Shown: positions 1 through 10,059 of the stretch, piece after piece
Layout: every line of letters begins with the position of its first letter
Numbering within the stretch: position 1 is the stretch's first letter
Virus record (IMG/VR): IMGVR_UViG_2713896898_000004
Location: 1-10,059 of that record
Strand: one strand, 5' to 3'
DNA length: 10,059 nt
Origin: a virus
Taxonomy: Duplodnaviria; Heunggongvirae; Uroviricota; Caudoviricetes
The notes under the pieces: model-generated
Databases searched by the model: none
What the model was told of the DNA's origin: nothing
Seen by the model: only the letters and a program-made list of their open reading frames with translations
Made by a program: the position numbers and the translations under genes

Positions 1-543
1 CGCGTCAATGTAATCCAGCACAGCGTTAAGTCTGGTTGTTTCTGCCTGTGTCAGTTTACGTCCGGCCTGCAATTTCAGTTGAATCAGACTGATGGAAGCC
101 ATTGCAGTATCAATCAGCGACTGGCGCTGTGCTTCTGCTGCATCTACTGCGGCGCTGCGCTGTGCCCCGGTATCCGTCACCCATTTCTCACCATCCCATT
201 TATCGTATGACGTTAACGGAGCGAGAGTGGTTGTATTTTCAGGATAATCTCCCGGTACTGTAATTTCTTTTGCTTCTCCTGTTTCAGTGTTATAGACCGT
301 TTCACCGCGATGGTCTGGCACATACTCCCATGAGTTTAAATCTGCTGAACGGCAGATAGCATAACCAGCTTTATGTGTGCCAGGTGCATCTAAACAGGAA
401 TACGCCGGAATACCAACACCTACAGCAAGAAATTCGGTTGATGCAGAAATATATTCCCTTGTCTCACTGTTATAGTTGTAAACGATAATGTTTCCTTCCT
501 GTACGGCAATAAGCTCATTGTTTAATATCGCGTTATTCATCAT
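1..543 (-). CDS. Tail fiber assembly protein (Tfa-type chaperone); 5' portion only, the 3' end lies beyond the window start
   Basis: Minus-strand frame starts ATGATGAAT at 543-535; its ATG (543-541) overlaps the TGA stop (542-540) of the upstream cassette (ATGA coupling). Hand translation: MMNNAILNNELIAVQEGNIIVYNYNSETREYISASTEFLAVGVGIPAYSCLDAPGTHKAGYAICRSADLNSWEYVPDHRGETVYNTETGEAKEITVPGDYPENTTTLAPLTSYDKWDGEKWVTDT..., open to position 1. The HRGxTVY and KWDGxxWV pattern is typical of phage Tfa chaperones. Absent from the ORF track because there is no stop inside the window. Confidence 0.75.
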   Translation of the reverse strand, partial: MMNNAILNNELIAVQEGNIIVYNYNSETREYISASTEFLAVGVGIPAYSCLDAPGTHKAGYAICRSADLNSWEYVPDHRGETVYNTETGEAKEITVPGDYPENTTTLAPLTSYDKWDGEKWVTDTGAQRSAAVDAAEAQRQSLIDTAMASISLIQLKLQAGRKLTQAETTRLNAVLDYIDA

Positions 544-1067
544 GCAGCTCTCACAATATAGTTAAATGCAATATTTCGCGGGCGTGTTTCACTACCGCCG
601 GGAATCTTAAAGGCATTAAATACTCCGCCGCCCGACTGACTTATTCCATCTGTATACAGCCCGCCTCCTGCACTGTCGCTGATTGCAAATGTTTTTGATG
701 GTGAACTGTTTGAGGCCGGTCCCCAGTATTTCAATTCGAGCTTTCTAACCTCATCTCTCTGAATACTCAATAAAGCACGTCCGGCATCAATAGCACGCCC
801 ATCATCCCAGCCACGAATAAATTCACCGCGTAAATCAGGCAGTTTTCCTGACGGGTACGCTGTGGCTAGTTTGGGATACTTCAGCTTATCAAAGGCAGCA
901 CCATTGCATTTTAGCCAGCCCTCTGGAGGTGTGGCTGAAGGCCACGGAACTGTTACACCAACAGGCAACGCAGAACCTTCCCCCAAACCAACGTTTTTAA
1001 CTTCGAAAACAGAGCTATCTAATAGCATTTTTACTAACAGAAACAGGATGCTTTTTATGCAAATTGG
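540..1067 (-). CDS. Tail fiber C-terminal variable (receptor-binding) cassette, Mu Sv'-like; probably silent in this orientation
   Basis: Track ORF 540-1028 (162 aa) has tail-fiber/tail-collar-like motifs (WLKCNGAAF...YPKL...LPDLRGEFIRGWD). The frame stays open 13 codons upstream of the first ATG to a stop at 1068-1070, with no convincing RBS. Followed by the Tfa gene with ATGA overlap and head-to-head with the invertase, as in Mu G-segment/gin and P1 C-segment/cin. Confidence 0.6.
   Translation of the reverse strand, partial: PICIKSILFLLVKMLLDSSVFEVKNVGLGEGSALPVGVTVPWPSATPPEGWLKCNGAAFDKLKYPKLATAYPSGKLPDLRGEFIRGWDDGRAIDAGRALLSIQRDEVRKLELKYWGPASNSSPSKTFAISDSAGGGLYTDGISQSGGGVFNAFKIPGGSETRPRNIAFNYIVRAA
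978..1003. other. Candidate gix/hix-like 26-bp invertase crossover site (12 + AA core + 12)
   Basis: TTCCCCCAAACC-AA-CGTTTTTAACTT. Left half matches the gix left half TTCCTGTAAACC at 9/12 (recalled consensus); right half matches hix GGTTTTTGATAA at 7/12; central AA dinucleotide. Lies inside codons 9-17 (EVKNVGLGE) of the tail-fiber cassette, about 55 bp from the invertase start. Confidence 0.35.
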
Positions 1068-1656
1068 CTATATTCGCGTATCAACAAATGACCAGAACAC
1101 GGATTTGCAACGCAATGCGCTCAATAGCGCAGGATGTGAACTGATTTTTGAAGATAAAATCAGCGGAACAAAATCAGCCAGACCGGGATTGAAAAAACTG
1201 CTCAGAACGTTATCAGCGGGGGATACGCTCGTTGTCTGGAAACTGGACAGGCTGGGCAGAAGCATGAAACACCTGATCACACTGATTGAGGAATTGCGGA
1301 AAAAAGGTGTCAATTTTCGTAGTCTGACGGATTCAATTGATACCAGCACCCCAATGGGACGATTTTTCTTCCACGTGATGGGCGCCCTGGCTGAAATGGA
1401 ACGTGAATTAATTGTAGAGCGTACACTGGCCGGACTGGCAGCAGCCCGCGCACAGGGGCGAATTGGTGGGCGTCGCCCGAAACTGACAAAAGAGCAACAT
1501 GAGCAAATAGCGAGGCTGATTAAAAACGGCCACGACAGAAAACAGCTGGCCATAATTTACGACATCGGTATATCGACGATTTATCGTTATCACCCTGTAG
1601 GTGACACGCAACCCGGAGGAATAATTGAGAATACTCAGGAAACAAAAAACCGCTAA
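1057..1656 (+). CDS. Serine DNA invertase, Hin/Gin/Cin/Pin family
   Basis: MQIGYIRVSTNDQNTDLQRNAL...DTLVVWKLDRLGRSMKHL...SLTDSIDTSTPMGRFFFHVMGALAEMERELIVERTLAGLAAARAQGRIGGR... is near-identical in motif content to Gin/Hin (catalytic Ser in YIRVST, C-terminal HTH). Start chosen at ATG 1057 (AGGA 9 nt upstream) rather than the track's 862, which overlaps the tail-fiber cassette. The stop TAA 1654-1656 lies in a terminator stem. Confidence 0.93.
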   Translation: MQIGYIRVSTNDQNTDLQRNALNSAGCELIFEDKISGTKSARPGLKKLLRTLSAGDTLVVWKLDRLGRSMKHLITLIEELRKKGVNFRSLTDSIDTSTPMGRFFFHVMGALAEMERELIVERTLAGLAAARAQGRIGGRRPKLTKEQHEQIARLIKNGHDRKQLAIIYDIGISTIYRYHPVGDTQPGGIIENTQETKNR

Positions 1657-1677
1657 TCTGAACATTAGCGGTTTTTA
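1645..1677. terminator. Bidirectional intrinsic terminator between the convergent invertase and U genes
   Basis: Perfect 13-bp stem AAAAACCGCTAAT / ATTAGCGGTTTTT with a 6-nt loop (CTGAAC); A-run on one side, T-run on the other; sits between stops at 1656 (+) and 1685 (-). Confidence 0.65.
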
Positions 1678-1684
1678 CGTTAAA

Positions 1685-2173
1685 TCAGAACACCCCTTTA
1701 ACTGAGCTGACCACATTGTTAAGGGATGATGTCACCTTATCTTTAAGACCGGACAGCATATCACTGAACGATGAGGATTGCAGGCGCTCCCGCAAATCCT
1801 CATCACAGCGTTCAAGGGTCAGGGAAAACTCTATCTTTTTCGCTTTCCCGTAGCGATCCAGTTCAGAGCGGGTCGTGCTCGTTTCAGTCAGAACATACAT
1901 GCCGTAAATCTGCCCGACGCCATCAATCAGAGGCCACGGGCGTCCCGCATACGCCTGCGTGGTCAGCAGCGACAGCGACACTTCGCCGCCTGTAATCTCA
2001 GGATAAAGCACGCCAGAAAGAACGATGCGATCATCACCTGCACCGATATACTGCCAGCTTGCTGAACGGTTAACGCGCTCGTTTTTCACATGTCGCCAGC
2101 TTTTGTTTTGCTGTAACTGCTGATGCGGCAATGTGCGCAATTCAAAAACAAACATGCCGTAGATCATCATCAT
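1685..2173 (-). CDS. U: P2-like tail protein gpU
   Basis: 162-aa ORF directly downstream of the tape measure gene; AAGGAG RBS overlaps the T stop. MMMIYGMFVFELRTLP...GVLYPEITGG...GRPWPLIDGVGQIYGMYVL resembles P2 gpU. Gene order T-U matches P2. Confidence 0.85.
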   Translation of the reverse strand: MMMIYGMFVFELRTLPHQQLQQNKSWRHVKNERVNRSASWQYIGAGDDRIVLSGVLYPEITGGEVSLSLLTTQAYAGRPWPLIDGVGQIYGMYVLTETSTTRSELDRYGKAKKIEFSLTLERCDEDLRERLQSSSFSDMLSGLKDKVTSSLNNVVSSVKGVF

Positions 2174-2184
2174 GGCACGACTCC

Positions 2185-5022
2185 TTACTCTTTATCATAA
2201 AAGCTTCCACGCCCGGCACGGGTACGCCGCTCCAGTTCTGCCCTGACCATTTCGCCGACCAGTTTCGCCAGTTCGCGGGGATTCTGCGTAACAACGTTAT
2301 GCAGATGGACATGAATTTCACCACCAAATCCGGGGGTCGCAGCCTCCCGGCTGCGGGAAGATGCGGAAACGGGCGCAACTGGCGCACGTGCGGCCTCCAC
2401 GACCGGACGGGAGCTTGCTGCAACAACAGGGGGCAGCGCCGGAGATAACGGAGCCGGGGGCGCGGGAGTGATATTGATTGCAGGAAGAGCCTTGTTGCTC
2501 TGCGCAACCTTTCGCTCCTGCCACTCCCCACGAACAGCAAGCGCACGGGGCAGGTTCTTAAAGACAATATCACCGGGGCCGATACGCTTTTTCGTCTCAT
2601 CAACCAGCCTGCCTGTGTTATCTGCAATTTTGCTGAGCCTGCGCAGCGTGCCAGTGTTGTTGTCCGTGAGCGGCTTGTTGTCTTTAGGCTTATCGCCTCC
2701 GGTCCCTGTTTCCGCAGATTTCGGCGGATTGATTTTTGCCAGGTCCCCCTGAAGTAAAGCAACCTTGTCCTGAAGAATGGCCGCACGCTGCGCGTCTTCG
2801 ATTTTCTTTCTCGCCCTTTCCGCTTCATCTGGAAGGACGCCAAGTTTTTCCAGTATCCATGCCAGCGTATCCAGCAGCATTTTTGCAGGCGTCAGGACAA
2901 GCTGTAACGCACCGCCAAGAACGTTGCCGAACACCTCGCCAGCACTGGTGCATTTATCCAGCGTTTCCTTGCTGGATTCCATCGGTGACAGCAGCGATGT
3001 AAACCAGTTAAAGACCTGAATCACGCCATCACGAACCAGTTCGAAAACAGGGCCAAACCGTTCAAAGGTTTCGCGTAACGGGGCCAGCCGCTCCATAATC
3101 CCGCTGAACACCCCGGCAAAAAATGCCCTGATTGGGTCCCAGTATTTCCAGATGAGAACGGCAGCTCCGGCAAGCGCAGCTACGATAAGACCGACCGGGC
3201 TGAACAACGCCCCGATAGCGCCTCCCAGTAAAGAGACGGAACCCGCCACCATTCCCCACAGCGCTGGCAGGACCCTGACAGCATTCATTGATCCGGTCAG
3301 GAGGGAAAAACCAAGACGCAGTTTTGCCAGCGGGCCAGCAAGCACCCCAAGAGCCAGTGACAACGAGCCAACCGTTGCAGTCATTGCCAGCAGCGCACCG
3401 CCTGCAATCAGTAGCTGGCGCGTCAGTGCCGGATGGGCCTGCGCCAGCTCCGTCACCTTTGAGACCACCCGAGTGAGCCACTGCGTGACAGAGCGCAGCG
3501 GACCGTCAATCAGATCCGCAATGCGGATACGCAGCCCCTCCCATGCACTGCCGAGTGATTTCAGGTCGCCATCAAGGTTATTGGCCATAACCTTTGCCGT
3601 GCGTTCAGCCTCACCGCGTGCGCCTTCAAGTTCTTTTCTCAGTTTGGGCAGAGAACCGTCACCTGCCGCATCAACGAGAGCCATAAATGACGTGAAGGCC
3701 TCTTCTCCGGCTATGTCCTTAAAGAACGATACCCGGTCAACTTCCCCGTATTTGCGGGTGGCTTTATAAAGGTCGGCCAGCACATCCTCCATCGGGCGCA
3801 TTTTGCCGTTCGCATCAGAGACAGCCACACCAAGCTCTTTCAGCGCCTCAGCTGCCGCCTTTGGCGGTGATGCCAGACGAGCAAGGCTGGCACGCATTGC
3901 CGTCCCGGCATCACTCCCTCTGATACCCATATTCGCCAGCACGCCCGCCATCGCTGCGGCCTGCTCCAGCGATATTCCCAGCTTACCCGCCACCGGACCT
4001 GCATATTTCATGGTTTCGCCCAGCGCGCGAAGGTCGGTGTTAGTACGGGTAAACGCCGCAGTAAGTGTGTCGCCGACCCGGTCCATCTGGTCAGCAGAGA
4101 GGCCGAACTGCGTCAGGATATTTGAGCCAATATCCGCCGTCTCGCCAAGGTCCATACCGCCAGCCGTTGCCATGCTCAGCACGCCGGGAAGCGCAGCCTG
4201 AATGGCTTCTGGTGTGAAGCCAGCCATAGCAAGAAATGCCTGCCCACTGGCGGCATCACTCGCAGTAAACTGCGTTTCAGAGCCGAGCTTTAGCGCCTGC
4301 TCACGCAGCGCCTTAAACTGCGGGCTGTTCTGGTCAATTCGCGTCAGCGCCTGCACACGGGACATCTCTTTCCCGAATCCGATAGCGGGCTGCAAAAAAC
4401 GCCCGGCAGCATAGCCGCCAGCCGCTGCCGCACCAGTTGCCAGCGCACCACCCGTTTTCAGTTTTCCCGCTGTTTCCTGCGCGCGTGAATACTGCTCACG
4501 CGCCCGCGTTACACGCGCAAGCGCCTGTCGTTCGCGTTCAAGCTGGTTGTTGTACTGTTCGGTGCGTCTGATGGCCTGCTGGATGGTGTTATCGCTGCCT
4601 GTCAGGGAAATACCGTGGCGTTTAAGCTCTCCGCCAAGCTCCCGCATTTTCTGAATTTCCCGTGTGCGCGATTCATTCAGGCGTTCAAGCCGGGTGCTTA
4701 ACTGCTGCATCAGCTTTTGTTGTTTTTCGCTGAGCACCGTACCCGTGCGTTGTAACTGATGAAGGGCGTTAAGCTGGCGTCGTGCTTTCACGATGCCAGC
4801 ATCCGCTTTACTGACAGCATCGCGGGCGCGCTCAAATGAACGCGCCTGACGCTCGAGATTTTTGATCGCCCCCTGCGTTCGCTGGATGGAGTCACCAAGC
4901 TGTCCCATCAGGCGGCGGGCGTTTTCGGCTGGCCGGGTCAGCCTGTCAACAGCACTGAAGGCGACCCGAATGTCAAGAGTCTTCATCGTCTGCATTCCCA
5001 CTGCGAAGTGCCGCCCGCTCAC
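2185..5022 (-). CDS. T: Tail tape measure protein (gpT-like)
   Basis: 945-aa ORF with a coiled-coil-rich N-terminal region (repeated Q/R/E/L-rich heptads), a central hydrophobic Gly/Ala-rich segment and an Ala/Pro-rich C-terminus; sits between E/E' and U as in P2. The true start may be an internal Met (MQTMKTL...), since E' overlaps the 5' end. Confidence 0.9.
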   Translation of the reverse strand: MSGRHFAVGMQTMKTLDIRVAFSAVDRLTRPAENARRLMGQLGDSIQRTQGAIKNLERQARSFERARDAVSKADAGIVKARRQLNALHQLQRTGTVLSEKQQKLMQQLSTRLERLNESRTREIQKMRELGGELKRHGISLTGSDNTIQQAIRRTEQYNNQLERERQALARVTRAREQYSRAQETAGKLKTGGALATGAAAAGGYAAGRFLQPAIGFGKEMSRVQALTRIDQNSPQFKALREQALKLGSETQFTASDAASGQAFLAMAGFTPEAIQAALPGVLSMATAGGMDLGETADIGSNILTQFGLSADQMDRVGDTLTAAFTRTNTDLRALGETMKYAGPVAGKLGISLEQAAAMAGVLANMGIRGSDAGTAMRASLARLASPPKAAAEALKELGVAVSDANGKMRPMEDVLADLYKATRKYGEVDRVSFFKDIAGEEAFTSFMALVDAAGDGSLPKLRKELEGARGEAERTAKVMANNLDGDLKSLGSAWEGLRIRIADLIDGPLRSVTQWLTRVVSKVTELAQAHPALTRQLLIAGGALLAMTATVGSLSLALGVLAGPLAKLRLGFSLLTGSMNAVRVLPALWGMVAGSVSLLGGAIGALFSPVGLIVAALAGAAVLIWKYWDPIRAFFAGVFSGIMERLAPLRETFERFGPVFELVRDGVIQVFNWFTSLLSPMESSKETLDKCTSAGEVFGNVLGGALQLVLTPAKMLLDTLAWILEKLGVLPDEAERARKKIEDAQRAAILQDKVALLQGDLAKINPPKSAETGTGGDKPKDNKPLTDNNTGTLRRLSKIADNTGRLVDETKKRIGPGDIVFKNLPRALAVRGEWQERKVAQSNKALPAINITPAPPAPLSPALPPVVAASSRPVVEAARAPVAPVSASSRSREAATPGFGGEIHVHLHNVVTQNPRELAKLVGEMVRAELERRTRAGRGSFYDKE

Positions 5023-5191
5023 GCCAGCTAACCACTTCGCCGGGCGTCATCATGAAGATTTCGGCGGGCGACCAGTTAAAAATAACGGCAATATCTGCCA
5101 CAAAGTCTTCTATGTGCTCAAAGCACACAACCGTGATCAGGCTTCCGTCGCCTGTTCGTTCTTCCCGCCAGAGTCCGCACCGCTCAAAAAA
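4973..5191 (-). CDS. E': E' extension, expressed as an E+E' fusion by -1 programmed ribosomal frameshift
   Basis: The -1 frame relative to E is open from the slippery site to a stop at 4973-4975 and overlaps the 5' end of T, exactly as for P2 E+E'. The track's 78-aa ORF 4973-5209 covers this frame. Confidence 0.65.
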   Translation of the reverse strand, partial: FFERCGLWREERTGDGSLITVVCFEHIEDFVADIAVIFNWSPAEIFMMTPGEVVSWRERAALRSGNADDEDS

Positions 5192-5505
5192 TTTACGGCA
5201 ACCACACATAACTGAATAAAGTCACGGGATGCCATTTTTTTGATCGTCACTTCATCCAGTCGCGGTGATGTCACGCGTGACAACAGCGTAAACATGGATT
5301 CCGCTTTCAGATTCAGCACATCAGACAGCGACAGACCACGCAGGGATCCAGCCTGCTCAATAGCCCCGGTAATCTCCACATACGTGATTTTTTCGTCGCC
5401 TCGCTCAATTGGCTGGGTAAGTTTTACGCCGCGCTCGCCGGTTTCTTTCGCAGTATCAGCAACCACCACAGCGTTTTCAGTATTGGTATTTTTCGTCTCT
5501 TTCAT
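5137..5505 (-). CDS. E: Tail assembly chaperone gpE (frame-0 product)
   Basis: 122-aa ORF; AAGGAG 7 nt upstream of ATG 5505; position between FII and T as in P2; contains the T6G slippery site near its 3' end. Confidence 0.8.
   Translation of the reverse strand: MKETKNTNTENAVVVADTAKETGERGVKLTQPIERGDEKITYVEITGAIEQAGSLRGLSLSDVLNLKAESMFTLLSRVTSPRLDEVTIKKMASRDFIQLCVVAVNFLSGADSGGKNEQATEA
5185..5191 (-). other. Slippery heptamer T TTT TTG (T6G) for the E to E+E' -1 frameshift
   Basis: Minus strand reads GTA AAT TTT TTG AGC in the E frame; a -1 slip gives AAA TTT TTT GAG CGG..., continuing into the E' frame. T6G is the slip-site type described for the P2 FETUD operon. Confidence 0.6.
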
Positions 5506-5524
5506 CAGAAAACTCCTTTCAGTC

Positions 5525-5546
5525 AGAGGCGACGCACTGCGCCGCC
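5525..5546 (-). other. Stem-loop between FII and E (possible partial terminator / mRNA processing or stability element)
   Basis: Inverted repeat AGGCGACGCA / TGCGCCGCCT (9 of 10, with a G-U possible in RNA) in the 54-bp FII-E gap; no U-run follows, so not a canonical intrinsic terminator. Confidence 0.3.
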
Positions 5547-5559
5547 TGCATATTACTTA

Positions 5560-6072
5560 TCAGCCGAGCCCGAGCGCGGAGCGGATGCGGTCGGGTACAA
5601 TGTCCTTGCCATCCTTCCGGTAGATGTGGTTCACCAGGTCAATTTCCCACACCGGACGATCGTTAATACTCAGCTTGTAGTAGGTGTTTTTGACAGCGTA
5701 AGTGTGTGACGTGGCTTCGCCCTGTTTGGCCTCCCCCATATCAATTTCCGTCACACGCCCGCGCATCTCGATTTCATACAGGTCGCTTTCTGCATCGGTG
5801 TAGTATTCACCCGCAAAACGCAGCAGCGTGCCGTCCATTGTTCCGCCATATTTAAGGAACAGCGCACGAACGGCGCCACCCATGACAAAACTCGCATCAA
5901 GCGCGGAATCGTCCAGGCCGAGGTCGATACTCACCGCCCCCATCATGCCACCACCACGATAGCTGTCGGTTTTACGCGTCAGTTTAGGCGGGGTGACAGA
6001 CGTCACCTTACCCACTTCATTTTCACCATCCACAAACAGCGTAAAAAAACGAAGATGTTTTGGTACGGCCAT
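5560..6072 (-). CDS. FII: Major tail tube protein (gpFII-like)
   Basis: 170-aa ORF; the start ATG overlaps the FI stop (TAATG); size and position match P2 FII. Confidence 0.9.
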   Translation of the reverse strand: MAVPKHLRFFTLFVDGENEVGKVTSVTPPKLTRKTDSYRGGGMMGAVSIDLGLDDSALDASFVMGGAVRALFLKYGGTMDGTLLRFAGEYYTDAESDLYEIEMRGRVTEIDMGEAKQGEATSHTYAVKNTYYKLSINDRPVWEIDLVNHIYRKDGKDIVPDRIRSALGLG

Positions 6073-7256
6073 TAAGCACCTCCAAGCACTGCAAATGCAG
6101 GACCAAAGAACTCATCAGTGAACGCCTGGTAAAGCTCCATATCTTCCAGCGGAGGAACGGGCGTATATTTATAGCGAATACGCACGCGCCCCTGTCGTAA
6201 TTCTGTGGTGCTGTTATCCACGATGTCATACCAGCACGATGCGCCAATCAGTTTCCCGGCAGTAACCAGCGAATCCAGTTTTGCCCTGATGGCACTGATG
6301 ACGTCCTTCACGTTCGCGGGCGTTAGTGGACTGTCGATGGTTTCAAACTGCGCTTCCGCAATTGAATCAGCCAGCACCTGTGCGGTTCGGGTATACACCT
6401 CAAAGATGTAGGCGTTCGTTTCCGGTGTGCGGTTGCCCCAGAAGCGGAACCCGTTGCGGCGAATGATGGTTGTGATTTCTTTGTTGTTGAGGCTGTTGGC
6501 ATCGCTGTCATCAGCCTGCAACGACCAGAACACATGCCTGGACATCCCCAGCACATTTTTAACCGGAACGTTGGACAGCGATTTGTGCCAGCCCTGTTCA
6601 TGGTCAATGTACGCACGAAGGCCGCACGCATAGGCTGGCGCGGGGAAAACCTCATTCTCGCCACTTTTCGGGTTGTAAGCGATGAAGTCCGGCCACAGGA
6701 GCATCAGCTCGCGTTCGTTGAATTTTTCACGGTATGCAATGGCTTCAGCCATCGTGTTACAGCCATGACAGGAGGCATACACAAACGCGCGCAGTTTACC
6801 TGCAATCACGCACAGGGATTTTGTCACCGCCTCCGTGTCCAGCCCCGGCGCGGCCAGAATACGCGGACGGTATCCGATGCTTTCATCCTGCTCTGCAACA
6901 AGCAGCGCATACATCCCCGTATAGCTGCCGTCGGATTCAGAACCACCGATAACCAGTTGATCCTGTGTTTTTCCGTCTTCTTCTTTGTGTTCAGCCACGC
7001 GAACGACGATCACCTTTGTGCTCACCTGGTCTGCAATGGGTTTCAGCGCACGGTACAGCGTCCCCGTTGTCCCGCATTTTCCCAGCACGTCATTGACGCG
7101 GGTCACTAATGCAGGCTTGTTCAGCGGGAACAGCTTCGCGTCCGCATCGTCCGCCGTTGCCACGATACCGATAACGCTGGAATCAACGTCGTTAATTGCT
7201 GTTACCAGGTCGGTACTTTCCGTAACGCGGGCGCCATGAAAGCGAGTTTCACTCAT
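6072..7256 (-). CDS. FI: Contractile tail sheath protein (gpFI-like)
   Basis: 394-aa ORF, first gene of the minus-strand block; size and order (FI-FII-E-T-U) match the P2 tail operon. Confidence 0.9.
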   Translation of the reverse strand: MSETRFHGARVTESTDLVTAINDVDSSVIGIVATADDADAKLFPLNKPALVTRVNDVLGKCGTTGTLYRALKPIADQVSTKVIVVRVAEHKEEDGKTQDQLVIGGSESDGSYTGMYALLVAEQDESIGYRPRILAAPGLDTEAVTKSLCVIAGKLRAFVYASCHGCNTMAEAIAYREKFNERELMLLWPDFIAYNPKSGENEVFPAPAYACGLRAYIDHEQGWHKSLSNVPVKNVLGMSRHVFWSLQADDSDANSLNNKEITTIIRRNGFRFWGNRTPETNAYIFEVYTRTAQVLADSIAEAQFETIDSPLTPANVKDVISAIRAKLDSLVTAGKLIGASCWYDIVDNSTTELRQGRVRIRYKYTPVPPLEDMELYQAFTDEFFGPAFAVLGGA

Positions 7257-7413
7257 AGTTCCAGCCCCTTGTATCCGTTAAATGATTCGGCAACAATCAT
7301 CACCCACCACGCGCGTAATCTCATCCCTGCGCCGTTCTTGCCGCCCGGCGACAACAAAAAGCAGTAACCCCGCCCGCACACACATGCGACCATGCTGCAC
7401 AGGGAGGGAGCCG
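7257..7413. promoter_or_regulatory. Divergent FI / D intergenic region; candidate late-promoter region with an imperfect TGT-N12-ACA-like dyad at 7338-7355
   Basis: 157-bp gap between the divergently oriented FI and D starts; TGC-CGCCCGGCGACA-ACA resembles the dyad element of P2 late promoters (recalled consensus TGT-N12-ACA); strong SD GGGAGGGAG before the D ATG. Confidence 0.3.
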
Positions 7414-8523
7414 ATGATTGACACCACCATGCAACTGTTCAACCAGAGTACTGACCCCGTGAAGATGCCTGATTTTGATATTCTCGCGGAGGGGAAAACG
7501 CTGTCCGGTGTGACAGAACGCCTGATGAGCCTGTCACTGACCGACAACCGGGGATTTGAAGCAGACCAGCTAACCATCACGCTGGATGATGCTGATGGTC
7601 AGTTGCAGTTGCCGCCACGGGGCGCTCGCCTGACGGTTCTCATTGGCTGGAAAGGCGAACCGCTGACAGAAAAAGGCACTTACATTGTTGATGAAATTGC
7701 TCATGAAGGACCGCCCGACAGACTGACCATTTCAGCCAGAAGCGCAGATTTTCGGGATGAATTTAACGTCAAGCGCGAAGTATCCTGGCATGATGTGACC
7801 GTTGAACGCGTGGTGTCTGCAATTGCTCACCGATACGGCCTGAAACCGCAAATCAGCGAAATGCTGATGGATATTGAAATCGACCACGCTGACCAGACCG
7901 AAGAAAGCGACATGTCCTTCCTTACACGCATGGCGGAAATGCTGGGCGCAATCACCACGGTAAAAAGCGGTAATCTGTTATTCATCATGCCAGGTGGTGG
8001 CGTGAACGCGCAGGGAAAACCATTACCATCGTTTGCCATCACACGCAGCAGCGGCGATCGCCATCAGTTTCGCATTGCTGACCGCGAGGCGTATACGGGG
8101 GTACGCGCTTACTGGCTTGATCTTAATTACGGGAAAAAGAAAAAAGTCAGCGTGAAACGCCGCAAACCGCCAAAACCCAAAAAGGAGAAAAGCAGCAGCC
8201 GTGAAGGTGACTATATGGAAGGTGCGGAAGGCAACGTGTTTGTGTTACGCAAGACTTATCAGAACGAGCAGGCAGCAAGACGCGCAGCGGCGGCAAAGTG
8301 GCAGCAGCTACAACGCGGAGCCGCATCATTCTCCATCACGCTGGCGCGTGGACGCGCAGAACTCTACCCCGAAATGCATGGCACGGTAACAGGATTTAAA
8401 AGCGAGATTGATAATCAGGACTGGATTATTGCAAAAGCCGAGCACTCCATTGATAACAGCGGCTTTACCACGCAGCTTGAGCTTGAGGCAAAAATCCAGG
8501 AATGGATAGCAGAAACAGAGTGA
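7414..8523 (+). CDS. D: P2-like tail protein / late control gene D product (gpD)
   Basis: Start set at ATG 7414 (MIDTTMQLFNQ..., GGGAGGGAG SD) rather than the track's 7282. The 369-aa product is gpD-like in length and sequence character and is followed by ogr as in P2. Confidence 0.85.
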   Translation: MIDTTMQLFNQSTDPVKMPDFDILAEGKTLSGVTERLMSLSLTDNRGFEADQLTITLDDADGQLQLPPRGARLTVLIGWKGEPLTEKGTYIVDEIAHEGPPDRLTISARSADFRDEFNVKREVSWHDVTVERVVSAIAHRYGLKPQISEMLMDIEIDHADQTEESDMSFLTRMAEMLGAITTVKSGNLLFIMPGGGVNAQGKPLPSFAITRSSGDRHQFRIADREAYTGVRAYWLDLNYGKKKKVSVKRRKPPKPKKEKSSSREGDYMEGAEGNVFVLRKTYQNEQAARRAAAAKWQQLQRGAASFSITLARGRAELYPEMHGTVTGFKSEIDNQDWIIAKAEHSIDNSGFTTQLELEAKIQEWIAETE

Positions 8524-8565
8524 GCAACTTAGAATAGCGGCAGCACCACGTTAAGGGAGGTCGCT

Positions 8566-8826
8566 ATGTTCCGTTGTCCGCTTTGTGGCGCATCTGCCCG
8601 AATCCGCACCAGTCGTTCGGAAAATGATTCAGATACCGTACGGAAAAAATATTACCAGTGTAACAACCTGGAATGCGGCGTATGCTTCTCAACACTGGAG
8701 GCTTTCCATAAATTCACATCGAAACACGCCCCCGGCGTTCACTCTTCAGAGGGCATCCCGTGGAATGAGCTACCAGCTTCGCACAGGGGAAACAACCAGA
8801 TGAGTTTGCCATTACCTCAGAATTAA
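8566..8826 (+). CDS. ogr: Ogr/Delta-family zinc-finger late transcription activator
   Basis: MFRCPLCGASARIRTSR...YYQCNNLECGVCF: Cys4 pattern CPLC...CxxxxC typical of P2 Ogr; AAGGGAGG SD 5 nt upstream of the ATG; located directly after D. Confidence 0.85.
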   Translation: MFRCPLCGASARIRTSRSENDSDTVRKKYYQCNNLECGVCFSTLEAFHKFTSKHAPGVHSSEGIPWNELPASHRGNNQMSLPLPQN

Positions 8827-8835
8827 CAGGCTGAA

Positions 8836-8864
8836 TTGCCGGAGTAACAAAAAAGCGATAGATT
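8836..8864 (+). promoter_or_regulatory. Sigma-70-like promoter for the hok-family mRNA (TTGCCG-17 bp-TAGATT)
   Basis: -35 TTGCCG (8836-8841), 17-bp spacer, -10 TAGATT (8859-8864); predicted start near 8871, giving a roughly 400-nt transcript to the terminator at 9277, as expected for hok mRNAs. Confidence 0.45.
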
Positions 8865-8886
8865 ACGCGCGGGTGCCTTTCGGCTG

Positions 8887-9099
8887 ATGGCTGGAGGGAA
8901 TACCCGAAGGCCGGATGTGGAAAGGCCCCGGAAAACATCTCTGTTTAACCGAGGCCCTGACCATCTAACCTTAGCAAGTGATAGGTTAGCGCCTCCCCAA
9001 AAAAGGAGCAAGCGCTATGTCGCAAAAATCGCTTATGGCCATCACGTTCTGCGTGACGGTAATCCTCATCATCTGGATGCTGCACGGTTCGCTGTGTGA
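8887..9099 (+). CDS. mok-like overlapping reading frame (translational coupling frame for hok)
   Basis: 70-aa ORF in a different frame that starts upstream of and overlaps the first 83 nt of the hok-like ORF, the arrangement known for mok/hok. Confidence 0.4.
   Translation: MAGGNTRRPDVERPRKTSLFNRGPDHLTLASDRLAPPQKRSKRYVAKIAYGHHVLRDGNPHHLDAARFAV
8890..8990 (-). ncRNA. Predicted Sok-like antisense RNA (position approximate, promoter not resolved)
   Basis: By analogy with hok/sok loci an antisense RNA complementary to the mok translation-initiation region is expected; the hok leader contains a hairpin CTAACCT...AGGTTAG (8966-8989). No clear minus-strand promoter could be fixed by eye. Confidence 0.2.
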
Positions 9100-9157
9100 A
9101 ATACGGATGAGCTTCTGGGGAGCGGAGTTTGCGGCGTTCTTACAGTGTAAGCAGTAA
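9017..9157 (+). CDS. Hok/Gef-family type I toxin (small membrane peptide)
   Basis: 46-aa ORF, too short for the ORF track: MSQKSLMAITFCVTVILIIWMLHGSLCEIRMSFWGAEFAAFLQCKQ. It has an N-terminal transmembrane helix, the SLCE(I/L)R motif and a C-terminal E-x-AAF-L-x-CK, matching Hok-family peptides (closest in pattern to HokA as recalled). AAAAGGAG SD 8 nt upstream of the ATG. Confidence 0.8.
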   Translation: MSQKSLMAITFCVTVILIIWMLHGSLCEIRMSFWGAEFAAFLQCKQ

Positions 9158-9242
9158 GGAAACCGCGACGGGGGAGCAATCCCCCGTCAATCGGTTGCTA
9201 AGGCTGGCCGAAGTGGCACCCTATCCCATGGACACAAACAAG

Positions 9243-9277
9243 AAAACCCGCAGCGTAAAAACTGCGGGTTTTCTTTT
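9243..9277. terminator. Rho-independent terminator (bidirectional-capable) ending the hok-family transcript
   Basis: Stem CCCGCAG / CTGCGGG (9247-9253 / 9262-9268) with loop CGTAAAAA, followed by TTTTCTTTT and preceded by AGAAAA. Confidence 0.75.
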
Positions 9278-9348
9278 GGAGCTCTCACTTAGCTAAGGTA
9301 CCGTTAACAACACACATAATGCTCGCAAAACAAACCAGTTAAAAGTGA

Positions 9349-9630
9349 TTACTCAGCATTCTCCTGCTTCCATTGCCGGATCATTTCATCCGTAACATCA
9401 CTCTCATAACATACCACGTCATACCCTCCAGTACGGCTATATGCACTGCGTCTACCACATCTACTACCATTCCTTGCATGATTATAAGGACACGCACAAT
9501 TGCCTGGATACGATTCAATGGATTCTTTAATTATTTCTTTCTTGATCTGAGCATCAGACTTTCCTGTTGCTGCATACCCACTAAAAGATACCAAACAAAA
9601 ACAGATTGCCATTAATAAACCACATCGCAT
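9349..9630 (-). CDS. Small secreted cysteine-containing protein of unknown function (AT-rich cargo gene)
   Basis: Track ORF 9349-9744. The internal Met at 9630 starts a classic Sec signal peptide (MRCGLLMAICFCLVSFSGYA|ATGK); the mature part of about 73 aa has 4 Cys (GNCACPY...SRCGRRSAY...VVCYESDV). GC content is visibly far lower than the flanking phage genes. Confidence 0.5.
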   Translation of the reverse strand: MRCGLLMAICFCLVSFSGYAATGKSDAQIKKEIIKESIESYPGNCACPYNHARNGSRCGRRSAYSRTGGYDVVCYESDVTDEMIRQWKQENAE

Positions 9631-9852
9631 ACCGATACACTCTATTACTAACCAATCATAACCCACATCATAAAATCGAGATGTGGAGTACAACACCTTT
9701 AACAAGAAGGTGTCATAACGATAATATGCCGTGCAATTCATCAAAAAAAAGATCTATATCAAAGAGATAGAGCTCTTATCAGTGCTGCAGACATCGGCAT
9801 TCGAGGCAGCAGAAAAACAGTAAATCTGACGAATTTGCCTTTTCTCAGGATG

Positions 9853-10059
9853 TTGTCAGATTAAAAAAGACAGATTAGCGCAGGTACCTTTTGGTGGATG
9901 GCAGGAGGAAAAATGAAGTCGAGTGGAAAAATCCCAGAAAAATTTTTGTTTAACCGAGGTCCTAGTTCACTATGCGAAATACGGAGGAGCTGCAGGAGAA
10001 TTCGGCTTCATCCTTAGAGTTTAAACAGCACGTGCACTACTATTGTTTCTGCATATCGC
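9853..10059 (+). pseudogene. Second, degenerate hok/mok-leader paralog (internally deleted; runs off the window end)
   Basis: Roughly 65-70% identity by eye to 8836-8960 (shared TTGyCr...AAAAAG...GATGGCxGGAGG...TGTTTAACCGAGGyCCT), then jumps to a match with the hok SLCEIR-coding segment (GTTCACTATGCGAAATACGGAGGAGC vs 9093-9118, 22/26). The hok SD, start and transmembrane region are missing and the promoter spacer is only 12 nt. Confidence 0.4.

Follow-up and report, generated by a model that had tools for sequence, protein, structure and literature searches.

The 10,059-nucleotide stretch of DNA analysed here (IMG/VR record IMGVR_UViG_2713896898_000004, positions 1 to 10,059; the whole stretch is called the window below) carries the tail genes of a P2-like phage in an order that raises two questions: how did FI, FII, E, T, and U come to be read leftward while the late control gene D and the activator gene ogr are read rightward, and how would D then be expressed? 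In P2 and its close relatives the genes from FI to D and ogr lie on one strand, as a first-pass annotation of the window had stated and as the annotated records of P2, 186, PSP3, and Fels-2 agree. We consider it probable (at roughly 0.8) that the window comes from a P2-like Escherichia coli prophage of the P88 type (Xuanwuvirus), of which it forms the right arm, and in which an old inversion of the FI-U block has become fixed in a whole clade and the spacer between FI and D acts as a bidirectional, Ogr-dependent promoter.

The gene map (see the table below) was built from six-frame open reading frames (ORFs) and Pfam scans, in which the matches of U, T, FII, FI, and D lay above the gathering score. 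Homologues of the Peduoviridae tail proteins FI, FII, E/E', T, U, and D are all present, and an Ogr/Delta-type activator with a C4 zinc finger is encoded beside D. The ORFs, together with the gene identities from Pfam and tblastn, bear out the strands given in the first-pass annotation, with FI-FII-E-T-U leftward and the invertase, D, and ogr rightward. FI and D diverge, as it had also stated, from an intergenic region of 157 bp (7257-7413), and the sheath, tube, and tape-measure block that it had described as an inverted unit of about 5.6 kb occupies 1685-7256 (5.57 kb), opposite to the P2-type order. Internally, the block is arranged as in P2, 186, PSP3, and Fels-2 (FI, FII, E/E' with a T7G frameshift site, T, U), the same phages also having D and ogr; an Ogr-type zinc-finger activator and, upstream of FI, a site of the TGT-N12-ACA type (predicted in the window) are further likenesses to P2, with protein identities of about 40-50%. 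By contrast, all seven genes of P2 share one strand, and its D, which overlaps the end of U, is served by the PF promoter, whereas in the window FI-U is inverted as a unit and D lies 5.2 kb from U and faces away from FI, and is therefore not part of the FI transcript. The window thus lacks a single-strand FETUD operon, FI-U and D occupying the minus and plus strands, respectively.

The same arrangement is found in known phages. In a megablast comparison with phage genomes, positions 1063-9277 were collinear, in one piece and at 90-93% identity, with P88, P884B11, Shae_phiSM, 500465-2, Chuche, and PhiR44_2. Within Xuanwuvirus (P88, P884B11, and Citrobacter phage Shae_phiSM), nucleotide identity to this part of the window is about 91%, and the single alignment with P88 or P884B11 covers 81-82% of the window at 90.8-91.3% (10 kb compared). 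The strands annotated in P88 and Shae_phiSM are those of the window, namely H G (+), G' H' (-), invertase (+), U T E' E FII FI (-), and D (+), and the tblastn maps also give invertase (+), U-T-E-FII-FI (-), and D-ogr (+), strand for strand. The first-pass annotation had expected the expressed tail-fibre gene outside the window, to its left and on the plus strand, and this order agrees with it. In Xuanwuvirus, as in the window, D is followed by ogr and then by hok/gef, although in P88 ogr is present in the DNA after D (by tblastn) and is unannotated in the record, and the FI-D spacer is 157-158 bp long with the same GTTCT-N11-GACAACAAAAAG element. P88 differs in that it does not share the part of the window left of 1063 or the approximately 800 bp from 9277 to 10059, both of which match other E. 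coli prophages.

The layout extends well beyond Xuanwuvirus. Salmonella phage SEN4 (Senquatrovirus), whose D is 64% identical to that of the window, is annotated with the inverted block and without an invertase, and tblastn mapping reveals the inverted layout in Klebsiella phages Kp4871-3 (Reginaelenavirus) and Kp4849-1 (Reipivirus). When a single genome of each bacterial species was scanned for D, 47 loci were obtained, belonging to more than 20 genera of Enterobacterales, and every one of the 43 with enough context (the other four are truncated) has U, T, E, FII, and FI on the minus strand followed by D and ogr on the plus strand; the genera include Salmonella, Klebsiella, Enterobacter, Citrobacter, Serratia, Erwinia, Pantoea, Pectobacterium, Brenneria, Edwardsiella, Kosakonia, and Symbiopectobacterium. 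The divergent layout was likewise present in all of the best 80 IMG/VR contigs (80/80; D 61-99% identical), which all belong to the inverted clade; the canonical lineages were compared through individual phage records instead. Overall, all D relatives of at least 61% identity and with enough context have the divergent layout (43 loci and 80 contigs, 123 in total), as do members of four genera of the official virus taxonomy (ICTV). Of the complete E. coli genomes (5426), 1355 contain an intact match to a 1.2-kb probe that spans the FI/D junction, and 621 contain one to a probe that spans the invertase/U junction.

Canonical order was found in P2, 186, PSP3, Fels-2, the Klebsiella phages of Kapieceevirus and Gegevirus, Burkholderia phage phiE202, Mannheimia phage 587AP1, and Yersinia phage YenM_201.16; in none of these does the identity of D to that of the window exceed 52%. 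The gene-order comparison with P2, 186, PSP3, and Fels-2 that had been proposed at the outset therefore confirms that the layout is non-canonical relative to P2, but the rarity implied by the first-pass annotation is unsupported, because related prophages commonly share the divergent FI/D layout. The single-strand FETUD operon describes P2 and several genera and is not family-defining, as four ICTV genera of Peduoviridae are without it. The inverted layout gives functional virions, since P88 can be induced and is lytic, and phiSM is a temperate phage that is active (PMC6456863).

Several individual loci in these surveys have features of their own. In the first tblastn map, the FI-D distances in Trabulsiella odontotermitis and Klebsiella sp. 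WOUb02 were 783 and 846 bp, respectively; the former has extra spacer sequence between the predicted Ogr site and D, and the latter has an N-terminal D segment at the normal distance, such that the 846 bp may be due to an interruption of D itself. In phages 520873 and 503458, as in E. coli 510016, the tail region contains IS100 elements. The relatives with insertions at or near the module (Trabulsiella, WOUb02, 520873, and 503458) appear to be decaying prophage copies. In addition, D genes 96-98% identical to that of the window occur in two Firmicutes assemblies, Vagococcus sp. WN89Y and a Planococcaceae metagenome-assembled genome, and these loci most likely represent contaminating Enterobacteriaceae DNA and not a host jump.

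As to how the block acquired its orientation, the first-pass annotation had offered three origins, and the distribution across phages and genomes favours one of them, an ancient inversion fixed in the lineage, and speaks against the other two, a recent rearrangement and an assembly artefact. The a priori expectation from P2 gene order is all that we found in support of an artefact or a recent, strain-specific inversion, which we regard as vanishingly improbable: both junctions are found without a break in independently sequenced phages and in hundreds to thousands of complete genomes that are independent of one another, the layout is common to 123 of 123 informative related loci, the junction spacer holds conserved regulatory-looking elements, and flanking inverted repeats able to drive flipping are absent. 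The junctions in independent genomes, the collinear phages, and the 123 shared loci together exclude an artefact or a recent private inversion. A different possibility is raised by the Gin/Hin-type invertase that directly adjoins the block, which might flip FI-U as a programmed switch with both orientations coexisting. This is hardly credible either, as no long inverted repeats of meaningful length flank the block (1685-7256) and no second copy of the candidate crossover site brackets it; a single orientation is seen in all 123 related loci; and the inverted block occurs without an invertase match in SEN4, Kp4871-3, Kp4849-1, and most of the genome loci. Conversely, Fels-2 and Yersinia phage vB_YenM_201.16 (Duonihilunusvirus) resemble the window in module order, in having an invertible fibre cassette, and in the location of the invertase between H' and the sheath operon, but their FI-U genes are canonical and co-directional with the invertase and D, making them the uninverted counterpart of the window. 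Since both phages have an invertase and a switchable fibre cassette together with the canonical FI-to-D order, the invertase and the inversion are unrelated.

The invertase in the window is placed as in P88, beside the G'/H' cassette that is its expected target, and it would switch this tail-fibre cassette only, with no role in the FI-U inversion. The cassette to the left of the invertase is probably the true invertible segment, with its left boundary beyond the window. Neither comparison with the annotated "Mu-like inversion crossover site" of 186 nor a self-search of the window gave a convincing match to an invertase crossover site, and a location at about 990-1030 is a guess. Overall, the simplest reading of these comparisons would be a single old inversion of FI-U that became fixed in a clade of at least four ICTV genera, by which the FI-FII-E/E'-T-U block and its late promoter would have been turned relative to P2 while D and ogr kept their ancestral orientation.

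Such an inversion has consequences for the expression of D. D points away from FI, and upstream of it the only gene on the same strand is the invertase, which ends at a predicted terminator; D therefore needs a promoter of its own. A late promoter for D had been named as a requirement in the first-pass annotation, and comparative evidence supports one in the form of a conserved predicted Ogr-type site and a -10 element before D. We aligned 47 distinct FI-D spacers and found that the most conserved element of the spacer is T(G/C)T-N12-ACAACAA. T(G/C)T-N12-ACAA stands at one aligned position in 44 of the 47 spacers, the other three having CCT as the left half, and the centre of the site is 78.5-88.5 bp from the FI start codon and mostly 67.5-71.5 bp from that of D. 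The P2 consensus for Ogr-dependent late promoters is TGT-N12-ACA (PMC3931495, citing Christie and Calendar, 1985; Julien and Calendar, 1995); the window has TCT-N12-ACA at 7336-7353, one mismatch from this consensus, and 20 of the 47 relatives have the exact consensus at the aligned position. On the FI side, the -10-like hexamer (GAxxAT) has G, A, A, and T conserved in at least 80% of the relatives at positions 1, 2, 5, and 6, and on the D side the same threshold is reached by TG at 41-42 and by A and T at hexamer positions 2 and 6 (xAxxxT). The predicted starts, estimated from the conserved -10-like hexamers only, are separated by 111 bp, with the centre of the site 55.5 bp from either one.

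This geometry is that of the divergent PP/PO promoter pair of P2. The Ogr-dependent late promoters of P2 have their dyad centred about 55 bp upstream of the start and no -35 consensus, and to be transcribed they need Ogr and the alpha subunit of RNA polymerase (rpoA109-sensitive). In the P2 GenBank record, one activator site (3057-3087) is annotated between mapped starts at 3016 and 3127, which likewise have 111 bp between them and lie 55.5 bp to either side of the centre of a TGT-N12-CCA motif. Both spacers separate divergent late operons by about 150 bp and have a dyad midway and weak -10 elements with A at position 2 and T at position 6; they differ in that the P2 pair serves P and O and is experimentally mapped, whereas the pair in the window serves FI and D and is predicted. 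We infer that D probably has its own Ogr-dependent late promoter, with one activator site shared with FI. The 157-bp spacer would then function like PP/PO: Ogr would bind the T(G/C)T-N12-ACA dyad about 55.5 bp upstream of both starts, leftward transcription from about 7289 would yield an FI-FII-E-T-U transcript ending at the hairpin between U and the invertase, and rightward transcription from about 7400 would yield a D transcript that probably runs on into ogr. The inversion would have set the activator site of PF beside D, which would then have needed to gain no more than a -10 element. We lean toward this scenario, in which a PF promoter moved by the inversion, with its symmetric predicted Ogr site co-opted in both directions, became a second PP/PO-like promoter coordinating the FI-U operon and D through a single site for an activator dimer.

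A weight matrix made from the FI-D sites only also found other late-promoter regions. Genome-wide, its best other match is the P-O spacer in P88, Kp4871-3, and Kp4849-1, and in SEN4 the top three matches are the PV, P-O, and FI-D spacers. In P88, the P-O spacer contains GTTCT-N12-ACAACAAAAG, nearly identical to the FI-D site of the same phage. The third match in P88 (18638-18664) lies about 450 bp upstream of R, inside a gene of the lysis region (DUF2570). P88 is without a separate intergenic gap before V, and the best match in SEN4 (9257-9283) is in the S-V gap, as is PV in P2. These genera may thus vary in how many late promoters they have and in where these are placed.

The hairpin at which the leftward transcript would end lies between convergent genes, as the first-pass annotation had noted in placing a bidirectional terminator between U and the invertase. 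The location of the hairpin at 1645-1676, its flanking A-run and T-run, and its folding on both strands agree with this description. The stop codon of the invertase (1654-1656) is within the hairpin, and that of U (1685-1687) is 9 bp beyond it. Predicted folding energies are -15.6 kcal/mol on the plus strand and -18.4 kcal/mol on the minus strand (z-scores of -4.9 and -6.0), and none of 200 shuffled sequences folds as well. "Bidirectional terminator" is therefore a fair name for a predicted element shared by the invertase transcript and the FI-U operon.

Several points weigh against the interpretation offered here. The window has no match to the exact TGT-N12-ACA consensus, its left half being TCT and not TGT; the exact search missed the site because the left half-site varies (TGT, TCT, or CCT), which is seen only on aligning relatives. 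A generic sigma-70 scan called nothing in the FI-D spacer, as is expected of activator-dependent promoters. The -10 hexamers GATGAT and GACCAT are weak, the predicted D leader is only about 14 nt, and all of the FI-D promoter elements are predictions. The conservation of the spacer could in part reflect shared descent, yet flanking spacer positions vary freely and the elements do not. The canonical order was sampled in nine phages only, from eight other Peduoviridae genera. Finally, the inverted layout is already known in that a quarter of complete E. coli genomes have it, as do deposited and annotated genomes that the ICTV has classified, but this status rests on database records and taxonomy and not on published analysis: the full texts of the P88, SEN4, and phiSM papers make no mention of inversion, orientation, or gene order, and a broader literature search likewise found nothing on the inversion.

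It is also conceivable that the layout is fixed as proposed but that D is expressed from an Ogr-independent promoter, either early/middle or constitutive sigma-70, with the dyad serving FI only. The activator gene of P2 and 186 has an Ogr-independent promoter of its own, a sigma-70-like match is located within the 3' end of D (8386-8415), and the conserved TG-n-hexamer on the D side is an extended -10 element, which can work without an activator. Even so, we consider this alternative unlikely. The -10 elements of D and FI are equidistant from the dyad centre in the 47 relatives, at the spacing of the experimentally mapped PP/PO pair; there is no -35-like element on the D side, where the -35 region is a conserved run rich in G and C, as expected for the activator-dependent late promoters of P2; and D is a structural baseplate protein required late alongside FI-U. 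With respect to ogr itself, which begins 42 bp past D and is probably co-transcribed with it, an Ogr-dependent D promoter might place the gene under positive autoregulation through read-through. Ogr-independent transcription of ogr must nonetheless exist somewhere, because the late cascade needs to be started, and the match at 8386-8415 is a candidate promoter for it.

Coordinates of genes and predicted elements are collected in the table. The start of D at 7414 is backed by a ribosome-binding site (GGGAGGGAG) and by aligned ATG start codons in the 47 relatives. The D frame is open upstream as far as an ATG at 7282, and in P88 a 43-amino-acid "hypothetical protein", gp50 (P88 14173-14304), is annotated over the FI start and the spacer. 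Both this upstream extension (7282-7413) and gp50 are likely annotation artefacts because they are not conserved and the spacers of relatives align as non-coding promoter DNA. D is 97% identical to D of P88 and about 49% identical to that of P2, U is 94% identical to the P88 protein (tblastn), and Ogr is 41% identical to P2 Ogr and has four cysteines in the arrangement CX2C-X24-CX4C. E has no Pfam or NCBIfam match; where it overlaps the E' frame there is a P2-type TTTTTTG slippery site (5191-5185, minus strand). The T ORF is open as far as a GTG at 5022, but comparison with the length of the P88 protein makes an ATG at 4995 or 4986 the likelier start. Homologues of the invertase are annotated as DNA invertases in P88 and Shae_phiSM. 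The tail-fibre cassette, which lies outside the inverted block, corresponds in position and strand to the gp42 tail-fibre fragment of P88.

Table. Genes and predicted elements of the window, in order of position.
Feature	Position	Strand	Basis
Silent alternative tail-fibre C-terminal cassette (H')	540-1028	-	Pfam Collar domain, E = 9.3e-15
Gin/Hin-type serine DNA invertase	1057-1656	+	Resolvase N-terminal domain, E = 5.6e-51, and HTH_7
Predicted bidirectional intrinsic-terminator hairpin	1645-1676	both	13-bp stem flanked by A-run and T-run
Tail protein U	1685-2173	-	Pfam Phage_P2_GpU, E = 5.8e-39
Tape measure protein T	2185-~4995	-	Pfam PhageMin_Tail, E = 4.9e-59
E+E' via -1 frameshift	E' frame 4973-5209 (whole 4973-5505)	-	Slippery site in overlap
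Tail assembly chaperone E	5137-5505	-	Position, tblastn to E genes of relatives, T7G site
Tail tube protein FII	5560-6072	-	Pfam Phage_tube, E = 1.8e-45
Tail sheath protein FI	6072-7256	-	Pfam Phage_sheath_1, Gp18_domIII_N, Phage_sheath_1C
Predicted -10 hexamer GATGAT, leftward FI promoter	7296-7301	-	44-49 nt from dyad centre; predicted start ~7289
Predicted Ogr binding site TCT-TGCCGCCCGGCG-ACAACAA (TCT-N12-ACAACAA)	7336-7356	.	Dyad centre 7344.5; spacer alignment
Predicted extended -10 TG-c-GACCAT, rightward D promoter	7385-7393	+	Hexamer 44-49 nt from dyad centre; predicted start ~7400
Baseplate hub / late control protein D	7414-8523	+	Pfam Phage_GPD, E = 4.5e-17
Ogr, zinc-finger late transcription activator	8566-8826	+	Pfam Ogr_Delta, E = 2.4e-14
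hok/gef-family toxin gene	9017-9157	+	Follows ogr
Hairpins after hok/gef	9166-9189, 9240-9275		Latter -23.4 kcal/mol
ORF of 131 amino acids	9349-9744	-	No Pfam or NCBIfam match

Toward its ends, the window is a mosaic. Positions 1-1060 form a fibre/assembly cassette unlike that of P88 and 82-87% identical to pro483, a P2 isolate, Klebsiella phages, and the P1-like phage vB_EcoM-813R1, and the best-matching E. coli strain differs between parts of the window; this is typical of the horizontal exchange of fibre cassettes. On the right, a 70-amino-acid ORF (8887-9099) has no NCBIfam match. The hok/gef gene bears the annotation "MokW-like host killing" in the P88 record, whereas that of E. coli 510016 names it "Hok/Gef family protein", and the second of the hairpins just past it is located roughly where similarity to P88 stops (9277). 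Rfam scanning at gathering thresholds found no RNA family in the whole window, including no hok/sok at the hok/gef locus, and the window has no tRNA. The remaining 9277-10059 has a G+C content of 39%, is not shared with P88, and is 99.7% identical to E. coli 510016, where the counterpart contains a hypothetical gene (equivalent to window positions 9349-9630) just before the leuZ-cysT-glyW tRNA cluster and pgsA/uvrC. It is probably a moron gene at the prophage end, beside a tRNA-Leu attachment site.

The element in the window is thus a member of Peduoviridae, nearest to Xuanwuvirus (P88). It departs from P2 in two respects only: the way in which FI-U is oriented and the separation of D from the operon. 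Although the layout itself can be found in existing records, a bidirectional FI-D promoter would be a small addition to what they hold, as we found no description of one for the P88/SEN4 clade. For annotators and prophage-finding pipelines, the layout is no sign of misassembly or of a degraded prophage; it is the standard architecture of one of the commonest groups of P2-like prophages in E. coli (approximately a quarter of the complete genomes) and other Enterobacterales. The clade would also provide a natural example of an operon that was split by an inversion and yet remained co-regulated, since a dyad activator site can serve both directions.

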